From Escherichia coli (GTDB lineage Bacteria > Pseudomonadota > Gammaproteobacteria > Enterobacterales > Enterobacteriaceae): a stretch of DNA of 55,000 nt. The stretch lies in assembly GCF_003334355.1 (NCBI RefSeq), contig NZ_QOWP01000026.1, one strand, 5' to 3'. The notes beneath the pieces were generated by a model. It was not told the origin of the DNA. It was given only the letters and a program-made list of their open reading frames with translations, and made no database searches. Positions 1-8,183 of this stretch are shown in pieces. A program made the position numbers and the translations under genes. Each line of letters opens with the position of its first letter. Position 1 is the first letter of the stretch.

Positions 1-145
1 GATATAGCCTATATGCCTATGATGCGGAGGAATGAATGTGATGGGAGTGATGTATCTGAATAGTTGAAAAACCGCAGTCACGTCGTATGCAAGAACGTGC
101 TGCGGTTGGTTTGACTTTGATTGAGACGTTTTGGAATTTTTTTTG

Positions 146-197
146 TGGCAAAAATGGGGCAAAACGCTGCAAAAGGGGCAAAAAAGGGGCAAAAAAA
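146..197. repeat. Short tandem G-tract/A-tract motif, about five copies of a 9-12 bp GGGGCAAAA-like unit
   Basis: Read directly: gtggcaaaaa / tggggcaaaa / cgctgcaaaa / ggggcaaaaaa / ggggcaaaaaaa in tandem. No ORF of 60 aa or more covers it. Confidence 0.6.
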
Positions 198-492
198 GAG
201 TGGATTATCGTAGTTTATTGTTCTCGCTGATGATGTTTAACACATTGAAAAATAAGTAAAACACTTATGAGTCAGATAGTTGTGATTTTTGCCCTTACTT
301 GTTCAGGTTGTATTGTTCTTTCTTACTAATTTCTTGATTTTGCGACATTTAAAAGCGACTCAATTCGTTATATGGCATCAGAAGAGTATGCGTCATGCCG
401 GAACGCCCAGCATAAGAAATCTGATATAAAAAACTGTGGCGTGTATGGTACGGATTAGAGGGGAAAATGTCAGCACATTTGCGAAATGAATC

Positions 493-520
493 AAAAAGCC
501 CGCAGCAATGTGCGGGCGTT
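493..520 (-). terminator. Rho-independent terminator downstream of uspF
   Basis: GC stem gcccgca/tgcgggc with a T-run on the minus strand, immediately 3' of the uspF stop. Confidence 0.6.
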
Positions 521-524
521 AGTG

Positions 525-1040
<516 letters not shown>

Positions 1041-1065
1041 TTAGATCAAAGGAGGAAGAATAAGC

Positions 1066-1093
1066 AGAAAAAGCCCGCCATAACAGCGGGCAG
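1066..1093 (-). terminator. Terminator hairpin downstream of ompN
   Basis: Stem gcccgc/gcgggc followed by a T-run on the minus strand, 3' of the ompN stop. Confidence 0.5.
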
Positions 1094-1099
1094 GAGGAT

Positions 1100-2233
1100 T
1101 TAGAACTGATAAACCAGACCTAAAGCGACAATATCATCGGTAGAGATGCCATTGGCAGCGTAGAAGCTGTCATCTTCATCCAACAGGTTGATTTTATAGT
1201 CAACGTAGGTGGACATGTTTTTATTGAAATAGTAAGTCGCGCCAACATCGGCGTATTTAACCAGATCTTTATCATCAACACCTGCCGGGTTGTCTGCACC
1301 ACCCGCAGCGTGCAGGTCACGGCCTTTAGACATCAGGAAAGAGACTGCCGGACGCAGACCAAAATCAAACTGGTACTGTGCAGTGACTTCAAAATTCTGG
1401 GTTTTGTTTGCCACAGCATAATCGCTGTCGCCAAACGGGGTCATATTACGCGTTTCTGAATACATGGTTGCCAGGTAAATATTGTTAGCATCGTATTTTA
1501 GCCCAGCAGTCCACGCGTCTGCTTTATCACCACCCGCCGCAGTATGGTTAACCTGGTCATTGGTGCGGTCAGAAGAGGTGTATGCCGCACCAGCGCTAAA
1601 GCCCATGCCTAAATCATATGTTGTGGAAAGACCCCAGCCGTCACCGTTTTCATGGCGAACATCACGTCCGTTGTTGGTGCCTTCCTGACCATTACTGGCT
1701 CCTTCGTTGTTACCTTGATACTGCACCGCGAAGTTCAGACCATTTACCAGACCGAAGAAATCAGTATTACGATAAGTCGCGACGCCATTGGCTCGACCAG
1801 TCATAAAGTTGTCTGCATTGGTATAAGAGTCACCGCCAAATTCAGGCAGCATATCGGTCCAGCCTTCGATGTCGTACATTACGCCATAATTACGTCCGTA
1901 ATCGAAAGAACCGTAATCTGCAAATTTCAGCCCGGCAAATGCCAGACGGGTCCATGACTGGTTTTTTGAAGATTCAGTGTTGTTTGCCTGAATATTGTAT
2001 TCCCATTGACCGTAGCCAGTGAGTTGATCGTTAATTTGGGTTTCGCCTTTAAAACCCAGACGCGCATAGCTCTGGTCGCCATCTTTCGCTGAATTATCAG
2101 AAAAATAATGCAGGCCATCAACTTTGCCATACAGATCTAATTTGTTGCCGTCTTTATTATAAACTTCGGCTGCATGTGCAGCACCTGCGGCGAGCAGGGC
2201 AGGAATTAAAAGTGCCAGTACTTTGCTTTTCAT
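1100..2233 (-). CDS. ompN: Outer membrane porin OmpN (OmpC/OmpF family)
   Basis: 377 aa ORF with signal peptide [21 protein letters not shown] and C-terminal ...LVYQF; classic general-porin sequence. Confidence 0.9.
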
Positions 2234-2460
2234 TGAATAAATCCTTTAGTTATTTTATTTGCCTTTTATCCCCATTTCGGGGAGTGAAAACATCCTAAAG
2301 GAGAAGTTCAGTTAGCCGATAAATATCATTTGTTACGCCTTAAGTAAAACCTTAATCAAATAATTCCTCTGAAATGATAATAAGTCTGGTGAATGTATCG
2401 AAGATAATACATACAAAATAAAAATTATACTTTTAATTTGCTATACGTTATTCTGCGCGG

Positions 2461-2569
2461 GTTATATGCCTTTATTGTCACAGATTTTATTTTCTGTTGG
2501 GCCATTGCATTGCCACTGATTTTCCAACATATAAAAAGACAAGCCCGAACAGTCGTCCGGGCTTTTTTT
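2461..2569 (+). ncRNA. micC: MicC small regulatory RNA (Hfq-dependent, represses ompC)
   Basis: Sequence gttatatgcctttattgtcacagatttt...aagcccgaacagtcgtccgggcttttttttt matches the MicC sRNA I recall, ending in its own intrinsic terminator. It lies between ompN and ydbK as in E. coli. Confidence 0.9.
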
Positions 2570-2599
2570 TTAGAATTGGATAATCCTTATCCAGAGCAT

Positions 2600-5500
2600 T
2601 TAATCGGTGTTGCTTTTTTCCGCTTTTCCGGCCATTTGTGCCAGGAAGTCATAGCGTTTTTGCAAATCAGCTGCAGCATCTTTCCATAACTGTTCTGCCA
2701 CTTCTGGCTGCTGCGAATTCAGCCGACGGAAACGTTGCTCGTGAAGTAACGTTTCTTCCAGTGCTTCTGACGGCGGGCGTGAATCCAAGGCCAGCGGCAG
2801 TTTGCCTTCATCGGCACGACGCGGATCAAAGCGATATAGCGGCCAGAAGCCGGTAGCTGTGAGTTGGCGCATCTGGTCGTGGCTGAGTGCCAGATCGTAA
2901 CCATGCTCTTCACACGGGCTATAAGCAATGATCAGCGATGGCCCCGGATACGCTTCCGCTTCCTGAATCGCTTTCACCGTCTGGTTCAGCTGCGCGCCGA
3001 GAGAAATCTGCGCCACATAAACATGACCGTACATCATCATACTGACGCCAAGATCTTTACGCGCTTTACGTTTGCCGTGCTCGCCAAATTTAGTTACTGC
3101 ACCCAGCGGTGTCGCTTTCGACGCCTGACCACCGGTGTTGGAATAGCATTGCGTATCCAGCACCAGAATGTTGACGTTTTCCGTCAAACTCAATACATGA
3201 TCCAGACCGCCAAAGCCGATATCGTAAGCCCAGCCATCACCACCAATCAGCCAGATTGATTTTTCCACCAGTGCATCTGCATCACGTAGCAGTTCATGTG
3301 CTTCGGCAACATCGTTGAGTTGCTGGCGTAAAGCTGCAACCTGTTCACGACGAACCTCTGGCGTGGCGTCTGATTTCAACGCCGTCAGTAATTCCGCCGG
3401 GATTTTATCGGCAAATTGATCCAGCAGACGCAGCACGCGGACACGGTGTTGATCGACCGTCAGGCGGAAACCAAGGCCAAATTCGGCATTATCTTCAAAT
3501 AGAGAGTTCGCCCATGCCGGCCCACGACCGTTGGCATCGGTGGTATACGGTGTAGAGGGCAGGTTACCGCCATAAATTGAAGAACAGCCAGTGGCGTTAG
3601 CGATCAACATCCGGTCGCCATAGAGCTGAGTCAGTAATTTAATATACGGCGTCTCGCCACAACCGGAGCAAGCACCTGAATATTCAAACAGCGGTGTAAT
3701 CAGCTGCGATGTACGAATATCAATACGTTCCAGTTTGCTACGGTCGATTTCTGGCAGGTTGAGGAAGAAATCGTAATTGATTTTCTCTTCTTCGACATGT
3801 TCCAGGCGAGACATCATATTGATGGCTTTAATCTCTGGATTCTGACGGTCTTTCGCCGGGCAAACTTCGACGCACAGGTTACAACCGGTGCAATCTTCCG
3901 GTGCCACCTGCAAGACATATTTCTGCCCGCGCATATCACGCGATTTCACATCCAGCGAATGCAGGCTGGCAGGGGCGTTTTCCATCGCTTCAGGCGGCAC
4001 CACTTTTGCGCGAATAGCTGAGTGTGGGCAAGCGGCAACGCAGTGGTTACATTGGGTACAGAGTTCCTCTTTCCAGATGGGGATCTCTTCGGCGATATTG
4101 CGTTTTTCCCAGCGAGTGGTGCCCATCGGCCAGGTGCCGTCTGGCGGCAGCGCCGAAACGGGGAGGGCATCACCAAGCCCGGCGAGCATCGCAGCGGTTA
4201 CGGTTTTCACGAAATCAGGGGCGGCATCGGAAACCACTGGCGGTCGATTGGCGCTGTGCGGATTAACCGGCTGCAACGGAACTTCTTCTACGGATTCACG
4301 CGCCAGCGCCAGAGCCTGCCAGTTGCGTTCCACCAGATCCTGGCCTTTGCTACTGTAACTTTTGGCAATCGCACCCTGCAATTCTGCGAGGGCGCTATCG
4401 CCAGGCAGAATTTGCGTCAGATGGAAAAAAGCCATCTGCATGACGGTATTAATACGGGCCGCCAGGCCACATTCGCGGGCGATTTTCGCCGCGTTAATCA
4501 CATAGAAGCGCGCTTTTTTCTGGTTTAACACGGCCTGAACTTCTTGCGGCAAGCGTGACCACACTTCATCTGCGCTGTACGGTGTGTTGAGCAGGAAAAT
4601 GCCGCCAGGTTTTAAACGCTCAGCCATCTGATATTTATCGATAAACTGCAACTGGTGGCAGCCAACAAAATCAGCCTGGGAAATGAGATAAGCGGAACGA
4701 ATCGGCTGTTCGCTCACTCGAAGGTGAGAAACCGTCAGGCCGCCCGCCTTTTTGGAGTCGTAAACAAAATAGCCCTGTGCGTACCACGGCGTGGAATTAC
4801 CGATAATCTTGATATTGTTTTTGGTCGCGGAAACGCTGCCATCACTACCAAGGCCATAAAACAAGGCTTCCAGTTTCGCCGAGTTTGGCAGGGTGTTTTC
4901 CGGCAACGGCAGTGACAGATTGGTCACATCATCGTAAATACCAACCGTAAAGCGCGCTTTCGGTTTAGCCGCGTTGAGCTCGGCAAATACCGCCAGTACA
5001 CAGTCTGGGCCAAATTCTTTGGATGAAAGACCATAGCGCCCACCAATGACACGGGGCAGAGTTTCGCGCTCGCCATTATTAAAGGCTTCTGCCAGTGCGG
5101 TCATTACATCCAGATAGAGCGGTTCTGCCTGGGCACCGGGTTCTTTGGTTCTGTCCAGTACCGCCACGCTGCGTACGGATCCCGGCAGAGCTTGCAGTAA
5201 ATGTTTAGCGGAGAAGGGGCGGTACAGGCGAACTTTCAGCACGCCAACTTTTTCGCCACGGGTTAGCAATTCATCAACCACTTCTTCACAGGTACCAATG
5301 GCAGAGCCCATCAGGATAATCACCCGTTCCGCTTGCGGATGCCCGTAATATTCAAACGGCTGATACTGACGACCTGTCGCGGCAGAGAAATCATTCATCG
5401 CCTGTTCAACATGGTCATAGACCGCGTTGTACCATGGGTTGGTGGCTTCGCGAGACTGGAAATAAGTGTCAGGATTGGCGGACGTACCGCGGATCACCGG

Positions 5501-6124
5501 ATGTTCCGGGTTGAGTGCCCGGGCGCGATGAGCATCAATTTCGACCTGCGGCATGAGATCAAGAATCGTGTCATCGGCCAGCGGGACAATTTTATTGATT
5601 TCGTGGGACGTGCGGAAACCATCAAAGAAATGAATAAATGGCACGCGGCTTTTCAGCGTCGCGATTTGCGAAATGAGAGCAAAGTCTTGCGCTTCCTGGA
5701 CGTTTGCTGCACACAACATCGCGCAACCCGTCTGGCGCACCGCCATAACGTCGGAATGATCGCCAAAAATAGAGAGTGCATGTGTGGCAACGGTACGTGC
5801 CGCTACATGCAGGACAAACGGTGTTAGTTCGCCTGCCAGTTTGTACAGCGTCGGGATCATCAGCAGCAAACCCTGCGATGACGTAAACGATGTTGAAAGG
5901 ACACCCGTCTGCAAAGCGCCATGCACGGTAGCGATAGCACCCGCTTCCGACTGCATTTCAACCACGCGTGGTGTGTCTCCCCAAACGTTCTTTAAGCCGT
6001 TTCCGGCCCAGGCATCAGCCTGTTCTGCCATCGTGGAACTGGGGGTAATAGGGTAGATGGCGATAACTTCACTGGTGCGAAATGCGACCGAAGCAACCGC
6101 GCCATTACCGTCAATAGTAATCAT
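2600..6124 (-). CDS. ydbK: Pyruvate:flavodoxin/ferredoxin oxidoreductase (PFOR)
   Basis: 1174 aa ORF with two 4Fe-4S ferredoxin-type Cys clusters (CTQCNHCVAACP, CTGCNLCVEVCP) and a TPP-binding region; matches YdbK/Pfo. Confidence 0.95.
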   Translation of the reverse strand: MITIDGNGAVASVAFRTSEVIAIYPITPSSTMAEQADAWAGNGLKNVWGDTPRVVEMQSEAGAIATVHGALQTGVLSTSFTSSQGLLLMIPTLYKLAGELTPFVLHVAARTVATHALSIFGDHSDVMAVRQTGCAMLCAANVQEAQDFALISQIATLKSRVPFIHFFDGFRTSHEINKIVPLADDTILDLMPQVEIDAHRARALNPEHPVIRGTSANPDTYFQSREATNPWYNAVYDHVEQAMNDFSAATGRQYQPFEYYGHPQAERVIILMGSAIGTCEEVVDELLTRGEKVGVLKVRLYRPFSAKHLLQALPGSVRSVAVLDRTKEPGAQAEPLYLDVMTALAEAFNNGERETLPRVIGGRYGLSSKEFGPDCVLAVFAELNAAKPKARFTVGIYDDVTNLSLPLPENTLPNSAKLEALFYGLGSDGSVSATKNNIKIIGNSTPWYAQGYFVYDSKKAGGLTVSHLRVSEQPIRSAYLISQADFVGCHQLQFIDKYQMAERLKPGGIFLLNTPYSADEVWSRLPQEVQAVLNQKKARFYVINAAKIARECGLAARINTVMQMAFFHLTQILPGDSALAELQGAIAKSYSSKGQDLVERNWQALALARESVEEVPLQPVNPHSANRPPVVSDAAPDFVKTVTAAMLAGLGDALPVSALPPDGTWPMGTTRWEKRNIAEEIPIWKEELCTQCNHCVAACPHSAIRAKVVPPEAMENAPASLHSLDVKSRDMRGQKYVLQVAPEDCTGCNLCVEVCPAKDRQNPEIKAINMMSRLEHVEEEKINYDFFLNLPEIDRSKLERIDIRTSQLITPLFEYSGACSGCGETPYIKLLTQLYGDRMLIANATGCSSIYGGNLPSTPYTTDANGRGPAWANSLFEDNAEFGLGFRLTVDQHRVRVLRLLDQFADKIPAELLTALKSDATPEVRREQVAALRQQLNDVAEAHELLRDADALVEKSIWLIGGDGWAYDIGFGGLDHVLSLTENVNILVLDTQCYSNTGGQASKATPLGAVTKFGEHGKRKARKDLGVSMMMYGHVYVAQISLGAQLNQTVKAIQEAEAYPGPSLIIAYSPCEEHGYDLALSHDQMRQLTATGFWPLYRFDPRRADEGKLPLALDSRPPSEALEETLLHEQRFRRLNSQQPEVAEQLWKDAAADLQKRYDFLAQMAGKAEKSNTD

Positions 6125-6397
6125 ATGACACCCTTACATTGCGCAAATGAGGGGCGCACGAAATTGCTGCGCGCCCAGTAGTAATCTTTCAATTTTAGCA
6201 AATGGCTTTCTTCTGCATTTTCGCTTTTGTGTCCCCCACATCAGCGTAATGAATGTTTTGATCAAACAGAGGGCAAAAAAATAGCCATAAAAAAGTAAAA
6301 ATGCGGGGCAACGCGCAGGACAGCTCTCGACGCCGCCCTCTGTGCTGCCTATTATTTATGGCGGTGTCGTTTGGCTTGAAGATCAGAGGAAGAAAAG

Positions 6398-6664
6398 ATG
6401 CGAGCAGCGTTTTGGGTAGGGTGTGCCGCTTTATTGTTGTCGGCGTGTAGTAGTGAGCCTGTTCAGCAGGCGACTGCGGCGCACGTAGCGCCAGGTTTAA
6501 AAGCGTCGATGTCCAGTAGTGGAGAAGCAAATTGTGCAATGATCGGCGGTTCGCTTTCTGTTGCCCGTCAACTGGATGGTACGGCGATTGGGATGTGTGC
6601 ATTACCCAACGGCAAACGCTGTAGTGAACAGTCACTTGCCGCCGGGAGCTGTGGCAGCTATTAA
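6398..6664 (+). CDS. ydbJ: Small lipoprotein YdbJ (DUF333)
   Basis: 88 aa ORF with lipoprotein signal MRAAFWVGCAALLLSAC and an RBS upstream. Confidence 0.85.
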   Translation: MRAAFWVGCAALLLSACSSEPVQQATAAHVAPGLKASMSSSGEANCAMIGGSLSVARQLDGTAIGMCALPNGKRCSEQSLAAGSCGSY

Positions 6665-7083
6665 TTCATTAAATCCGCCAGCTTATAAGTTAATGTCTGT
6701 TTCGCGGTCGCCAGCGTTAACTGGTTCGCGGTCAGATCCACTTGTGCACCTTCTTTCAGCATTTCGCTAATGGTGTTATCGAGTTCATTAAGCTGCGGGT
6801 TAGCGCACATCATACGGGTCATTGCCAGCCCTTTGGCTGTCAGTTCACCATTAGACAGTTTGCCTTCACCGCTAAAGCGGTTACACATGCTGCCGGAAAT
6901 CATCATTTTTTCACCAAAGCTGATTTCTGGCGGATTTTTATCGCTGGTCACGGGCTTACCGTTTACGCTTTCCAGCACAAAGCGATGATGCTGTAACTGT
7001 TCTGGCGTTACAGCAATTTTGTCACTACTTACACATCCCGCCATCAGCAGGCTTAGCGCAACAAGCGCGGCTACTTTCTTCAT
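6661..7083 (-). CDS. hslJ: Heat-inducible lipoprotein HslJ
   Basis: Track ORF starts at a TTG; the likely start is the ATG giving MKKVAALVALSLLMAGC (lipobox), 140 aa. Confidence 0.85.
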   Translation of the reverse strand: MKKVAALVALSLLMAGCVSSDKIAVTPEQLQHHRFVLESVNGKPVTSDKNPPEISFGEKMMISGSMCNRFSGEGKLSNGELTAKGLAMTRMMCANPQLNELDNTISEMLKEGAQVDLTANQLTLATAKQTLTYKLADLMN

Positions 7084-7193
7084 TGTGGTTCTCAATTACA
7101 GTTTCTGACTCAGGGCTATTTTAAGAATAGAGGATGAAAGGTCTTTGGGGATTATCTGAATAAGCTCCCCTGGAATGCAGGGGAGCGGCAAGA

Positions 7194-8183
7194 TTAAACC
7201 AGTTCGTTCGGGCAGGTTTCGCCTTTTTCCAGATTGCTTAAGTTTTGCAGCGTAGTCTGAGAAATACTGGTCAGAGCTTCTGCTGTCAGGAATGCCTGAT
7301 GCCCGGTAAACAGCACGTTGTGGCAGGCAGACAGGCGACGGAATACGTCATCCTGAATTACGTCGTTGGATTTATCTTCAAAGAACAGATCGCGTTCGTT
7401 CTCATATACGTCCATACCCAACGAACCAATTTTCTGATTTTTCAGCGCTTCAATTGCCGCCTGAGAATCAATCAATGCACCGCGACTGGTATTGACGATC
7501 ATCACGCCATTTTTCATCTGATCGAAGGCGGCTTCGTTCAACAGATGGTAGTTTTCCGGTGTCAGCGGGCAGTGCAGAGAGATAACGTCTGATTCAGAGA
7601 ACAGGGTTGGCAGATCGACATACTCCACACCGAGTTCCAGCGCCGCCGCACTTGGATACGGATCGAACGCCAGCAGACGCATACCAAAACCTTTCAGAAT
7701 GCGCAGCATCGCCACACCAATTTTACCGGTACCGATAACGCCTGCCGTTTTGCCATACATAGTAAAGCCGGTCAGACCTTCCAGAGAGAAGTTAGCGTCA
7801 CGGGTACGCTGATACGCGCGGTGAATACGGCGGTTCAGCGTCATCATCATACCGATGGCGTGTTCAGCAACGGCTTCTGGATCATAGGCTGGAACACGGA
7901 CTACTTTCAGCCCCAGTTCTTTTGCCGCGTCAAGGTCGACGTTATTGAAACCGGCACAGCGCAGGGCGATATATTTAACGCCGTGCTTTTTCAGCTCTTC
8001 CAGCACCGGGCGGCTGCCGTCATCGTTTACGAAAATACATACCGCTTCGCAGCCATTGGCAGTTTTAGCGGTTTTTTCCGTCAGCAGAAAGTCAAAAAAT
8101 TCCAGCTCAAAGCCAAAGGACTCGTTCACCTGTTGCAGGTACTTCTTGTCGTACTGTTTTGTGCTATAAACGGCGAGTTTCAT
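7194..8183 (-). CDS. ldhA: Fermentative D-lactate dehydrogenase (NAD-dependent)
   Basis: 329 aa ORF with the D-2-hydroxyacid dehydrogenase NAD-binding motif GVIGTGKIG; matches LdhA. Confidence 0.95.
   Translation of the reverse strand: MKLAVYSTKQYDKKYLQQVNESFGFELEFFDFLLTEKTAKTANGCEAVCIFVNDDGSRPVLEELKKHGVKYIALRCAGFNNVDLDAAKELGLKVVRVPAYDPEAVAEHAIGMMMTLNRRIHRAYQRTRDANFSLEGLTGFTMYGKTAGVIGTGKIGVAMLRILKGFGMRLLAFDPYPSAAALELGVEYVDLPTLFSESDVISLHCPLTPENYHLLNEAAFDQMKNGVMIVNTSRGALIDSQAAIEALKNQKIGSLGMDVYENERDLFFEDKSNDVIQDDVFRRLSACHNVLFTGHQAFLTAEALTSISQTTLQNLSNLEKGETCPNELV

Follow-up and report, generated by a model that had tools for sequence, protein, structure and literature searches.

MicC of Escherichia coli K-12 (b4427; Rfam RF00121; Chen et al. 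2004, J Bacteriol 186:6689, cited via PMC5745476) is an RNA of 109 nt (PMC5745476). As summarized in PMC5745476, Chen et al. (2004) describe it as Hfq-associated and as forming a 22-bp duplex near the ompC start that inhibits 30S binding. An ompC::gfp fusion carrying -81..+12 is repressed >20-fold by MicC (PMC1807950), and the decay of a second target, ompD, proceeds via RNase E (PMC10250213). MicF follows the same logic as an Hfq-dependent sRNA encoded divergently from one porin gene that represses another (ompF) through base pairing close to the ribosome-binding site (PMC5745476), and micF is annotated next to ompC in K-12. The DNA analyzed here, referred to as the window, is a 55-kb stretch from E. 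coli in which an 83-codon ORF lies over a sequence resembling MicC. The analysis assigns a probability of about 97% to the reading that window 2461..2571 on the plus strand is micC, the gene for an Hfq-dependent trans-acting sRNA, and that the ORF over it is a chance frame. The features that define the locus are:

1100..2233, minus strand: ompN, 377 aa, a quiescent OmpC-family porin divergent from micC (NCBIfam NF007841, OmpC-subfamily porin, 594 bits; RefSeq annotation)
2461..2571, plus strand: micC gene, equal to K-12 RefSeq ncRNA b4427 (111 nt); Rfam RF00121; 100% identity to K-12 1437121..1437231
2438..2689, plus strand: spurious 83-codon ORF with a TTG start, from the mechanical ORF list and its translation
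2600..6124, minus strand: ydbK/nifJ, pyruvate:flavodoxin oxidoreductase, 1174 aa, convergent with micC (TIGR02176, 1626 bits; RefSeq annotation)

Identification of micC

The original prediction proposed a search with the Rfam MicC covariance model as its check. That search was run on window 1..8000 with Rfam 15, and RF00121 matched 2458..2578 (+) over model positions 1-123 of 123. The bit score is 125 (gathering score, 90), and the E-value is 2.9e-20 for the 8 kb scanned and 2e-19 for the whole 55-kb window. Coverage of the full-length model at a score above the curated threshold places the locus in the MicC family.

Window 2234..2620 and the ompN–ydbK intergenic region of E. coli K-12 MG1655 agree at all 387 nt (100% identity), and the annotated K-12 ncRNA micC (b4427, 1437121..1437231) maps to window 2461..2571, which makes the locus an ortholog of the type gene. 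The 109-nt form of the RNA would correspond to window 2461..2569. The gene sits between ompN and ydbK, as had been predicted, and is divergent from the former and convergent with the latter. The micC region was found in 5413 of 5426 complete E. coli genomes. The first 7.8 kb of the window is 99.5% identical to K-12, and thus the window is not K-12 itself.

The whole 55-kb window contains two RNA families above threshold, MicC and RydC. The RydC sRNA (Rfam RF00505) lies at 54222..54285 (-) with a score of 92.5 bits (gathering score, 48). The Rfam scan returned no MicF match in the window. Matches to the Thr and Leu leaders at the micC site were weak and fell below threshold; they are a product of the terminator hairpin and were set aside. 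At its left end, the first ~298 nt of the window correspond in K-12 to the terminal part of the cryptic prophage Rac and to the ttcC remnant, as against an intact ttcA in strain 120899. A partial CssrB match within this segment (69..104) is subthreshold at 22.6 bits against a gathering score of 76.

The assignment is a sequence-based one. It draws on family membership, K-12 identity, synteny, conservation of RNA structure, ompC complementarity, and the absence of ORF conservation. Expression of micC, its Hfq dependence, and ompC repression are attributed to this copy from the literature on the identical K-12 sequence and not from this strain. In its canonical context, micC is already known and well characterized.

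Conservation of the locus in Enterobacteriaceae

A genome collection was scanned with a pattern of 18 specified bases taken from the MicC 5′ end, which returned 45 loci. Enterobacteriaceae account for 34 of these (Escherichia, Citrobacter, Salmonella, Klebsiella, Superficieibacter, Pseudocitrobacter, and a MAG labeled Raoultella), and all 34 carry the full MicC-like body and the terminator (AAGCCCGAA...TTCGGGC followed by a T run). The remaining 11 loci, from Bacteroidota, archaea, Spirochaetia, and others, have no MicC body or terminator and were discarded as chance matches. Nt 1–20 are invariant among the orthologs because the search pattern requires it, and this invariance carries no weight as evidence. 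The pattern did not include the terminator or two upstream blocks, all of which are conserved in the orthologs.

A convergent nifJ starts 17–35 nt after MicC in all 33 orthologs with enough downstream DNA; for the remaining ortholog (L034), just 139 nt are available downstream, and an IS200 end occupies them. Upstream DNA of 1.4 kb or more is available for 22 loci, and 20 of them have a full OmpN-like porin divergent from MicC. The two loci of these 22 with no porin upstream are from Salmonella enterica subsp. arizonae (L026) and diarizonae (L044), and the pairing of ompN with micC is therefore not universal. The immediate upstream neighbor of micC in the arizonae locus is uspF, which is 91% identical to the uspF of the window.

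Insertion sequences were observed at two loci. E. coli ETEC4068 (L049; NZ_CP122681.1, 4165..5700) has a 768-bp IS1 inserted at micC nt +4/+5 and flanked by a 9-bp duplication equal to window 2456..2464; the insertion cuts this micC off from its own promoter. The allele is only 86% identical to that of the window and its terminator is perfectly paired. An IS200C copy directly follows this terminator, and the identical IS200-end sequence (GTGCACAGAAAACCCCCAGCTAGGCTGGGGG...) starts right after the T run of the MicC terminator in both L034, a Citrobacter MAG, and L049. The shared end suggests that insertion recurs at this site or that the sequence was transferred between the two.

RNA structure and the terminator

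Two structured elements follow the MicC 5′ end:

2495..2529, plus strand: middle stem-loop, UGUUGGG (2495..2501) pairing with UCCAACA (2523..2529); Rfam consensus stem
2541..2571, plus strand: intrinsic terminator, stem 2541-2550/2555-2564, loop AGUC 2551-2554, T9 2563-2571; from sequence and fold

A Rho-independent terminator with a U tail is the 3′ module typical of Hfq-dependent sRNAs. The intrinsic terminator had been predicted at 2541..2570 and is present there, with the T run reaching 2571. It consists of a 10-bp stem with one A.C mismatch and nine U residues and is kept in 34 of 34 orthologs.

Structure conservation was measured on an alignment of 35 sequences (34 distinct), with controls in which the 3′ partners were slid by 1–3 columns. 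The Rfam-type MicC structure is 92.9% paired across the alignment compared with 30–52% in the slid controls. The terminator is 99% paired across the orthologs. The middle stem is 83% paired, and changes on both sides occur in four of its seven pairs among the 34 distinct sequences; its basal pair is U-A in Escherichia and C-G in Citrobacter. The observed covariation score was reached by none of 500 shuffles. The 5′ 22 nt of MicC are unpaired in the Rfam-supported structure. The single-sequence MicC fold is only marginally better than shuffles (z = -1.75). RNAalifold on the MAFFT alignment returned the terminator alone as consensus, and the middle stem was tested separately as a named structure. 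A second hairpin in the single-sequence fold (MicC nt 21–36; columns 21-24 with 35-38) was rejected, being only 50% paired in the orthologs.

The mismatch in the terminator stem of the E. coli K-12 type is at 2548/2557, where 33 of the 35 aligned sequences have an A-U pair. Read from the ydbK side, on the minus strand, the mismatch becomes a G.U wobble, and a terminator scan calls the hairpin on this strand 36 nt past the ydbK stop. The micC hairpin probably also terminates ydbK and would thus serve both convergent transcripts.

Complementarity to the ompC leader

The unpaired 5′ end contains the target-pairing region:

2461..2482, plus strand: 5′ single-stranded target-pairing region, MicC nt 1–22; duplex computed against the K-12 ompC leader

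The ompC gene of this strain lies outside the window, and complementarity was therefore assessed with K-12 ompC. MicC nt 1–16 (2461..2476; GUUAUAUGCCUUUAUU) can form 16 uninterrupted Watson-Crick pairs with K-12 ompC mRNA -30..-15, which is directly upstream of the GAGGG Shine-Dalgarno sequence. By the authors' arithmetic, ~3e-6 chance 16-mer complements are expected for these lengths. MicC nt 1–22 form 21 pairs with K-12 ompC with an internal loop on the mRNA side. A duplex of full-length MicC with 160 nt of ompC mRNA was set aside: it is an unrealistic end-to-end pairing at -59.8 kcal/mol against a shuffle mean of -43, and 3 of 500 shuffles were as good. Because of this unrealistic geometry and the large shuffle background, the analysis relies on the 16-nt perfect complement and on the duplex of the 5′ 30 nt.

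The proposed mechanism follows the K-12 model. The gene would be transcribed from its own promoter, divergently from ompN, to give an RNA of ~109 nt ending at the intrinsic terminator just before the convergent ydbK. The unstructured 5′ end of this RNA would pair with the ompC leader just upstream of the Shine-Dalgarno sequence, and this pairing would block 30S binding and lower OmpC synthesis. In Salmonella, the same 5′ end pairs within the ompD coding sequence and directs cleavage by RNase E.

The putative promoter region

The upstream alignment of 35 sequences points to a promoter just upstream of the gene:

2415..2454, plus strand: putative micC promoter, from conservation in the upstream alignment (35 sequences)

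Two blocks are conserved in this alignment, an A/T block (AAAATAAAAATTATAC) at window 2415..2430 and a second block (TATTCTGCGCGG) at 2449..2460, and together they are the likely micC promoter. Its candidate elements would be a weak -35-like TTATAC (2425..2430) preceded by an A/T tract, a spacer of 18 nt, and a -10 element TATTCT at 2449..2454 (-12..-7). A scan for the sigma-70 consensus called no plus-strand promoter. A 227-nt fragment equal to window 2234..2460 drove both micC-lacZ and ompN-lacZ fusions (PMC5745476). Beta-lactams induced both reporters together, loss of sigma-E or H-NS de-repressed them, and OmpR is a repressor of micC (PMC5745476).

Open reading frames overlapping micC

The better surviving of two coding alternatives is that MicC is a dual-function RNA that also encodes a peptide of 17 aa (MPLLSQILFSVGPLHCH; window 2466..2519) beginning at the nt-6 AUG. 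A near-leaderless micropeptide would then start at window 2466, and its translation would compete with target pairing through the overlap with the seed. There are precedents, since Spot 42 and other E. coli sRNAs once held to be non-coding were later found to encode peptides (PMC8916003). The nt-6 ORF is the sole complete AUG-initiated ORF wholly inside MicC, and its AUG is present in 35 of 35 aligned sequences. However, this AUG sits in the seed, so RNA pairing explains its conservation, which the search pattern also imposes. Conservation of the peptide stops after the seed-encoded MPLLS; predicted lengths span 7–25 aa, and in four sequences the frame stays open to the end of the RNA. The AUG is preceded by only 5 nt, which include no Shine-Dalgarno sequence. 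MicC has zero occurrences in two 2025 reviews of dual-function sRNAs. The conserved small ORF expected of a dual-function RNA is not found at nt 6, and a peptide-coding role for MicC is very improbable.

The 83-codon ORF fares worse. Its size is unremarkable because the first 8 kb of the window holds 54 ORFs of 40 aa or more, the majority of which are not genes. The first base of the ORF precedes the MicC 5′ end by 23 nt, and the RNA covers only the first ~44% of its span. As read from the sequence, the frame crosses the terminator and the transcript ends at codon 44 of 83. The last 30 codons (2600..2689) are antisense to the ydbK 3′ end. The 20 nt before the TTG (ATAAAAATTATACTTTTAAT) contain no purine-rich Shine-Dalgarno sequence, and the translation has no NCBIfam family match at E <= 0.01.

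The frame is also not conserved. The longest ORF over MicC in the 34 enterobacterial orthologs ranges from 25 to 100 aa, and the frames, starts, and ends differ. Other Escherichia species already have the 83-aa frame interrupted or displaced (31 and 59–69 aa), and the same holds for every other genus. MicC lengths vary from 100 to 114 nt across the orthologs with indels that are not multiples of three, and a coding frame is thus not preserved.

Public protein collections list the exact 83-aa sequence, with M as the start, as a 'hypothetical protein' from 911 contigs, all E. coli or Shigella. A 59-aa version in the same frame with a different start codon is on 587 further contigs from E. coli or Shigella. 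These deposited proteins are predictions only and are gene-caller artifacts. Neither the RefSeq PGAP nor the K-12 annotation calls the 83-aa ORF. A genuine protein-coding gene at 2438..2689, with or without an overlapping micC, is the least probable reading and is disfavored: the 83 open codons and the public entries in E. coli and Shigella speak for it, but the TTG has no Shine-Dalgarno sequence, the start precedes the only known plus-strand transcription start, a strong terminator falls at codon 44, and gene callers disagree on where the protein begins. The original prediction that 2438..2689 marks the MicC sRNA gene and not a protein is borne out by the Rfam match, the K-12 identity, and the failed coding tests.

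Annotation of micC in public records

The micC gene is annotated in K-12 MG1655 and absent from the other RefSeq records sampled. The PGAP-annotated E. coli RefSeq records among these (for example NZ_CP025916.1, L001) have no feature between ompN and nifJ (2234..2599), and outside K-12 micC is invisible to PGAP annotation in the records sampled. Reading the locus as micC removes a false protein call and replaces it with a well-characterized regulator of porin balance and hence of antibiotic permeability. The practical value is in annotation quality, as the false ORF stands on hundreds of E. coli and Shigella contigs as a 'hypothetical protein'.

Comparison with known systems

SgrS/SgrT, Spot 42/SpfP, and AzuCR resemble MicC in having a small ORF inside a base-pairing sRNA. 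Their ORFs have been shown to be translated, whereas the small ORFs of MicC show no conservation and have no ribosome-binding site. MicF shares the regulatory logic of MicC and differs in Rfam family, sequence, and target. The closest system is MicC of E. coli K-12, whose sequence is the same as that of the window throughout the gene and the entire ompN-ydbK intergenic region. There is no difference within the gene between the K-12 and window copies, and the two share the same neighbors, orientation, ompC seed complementarity, and terminator.
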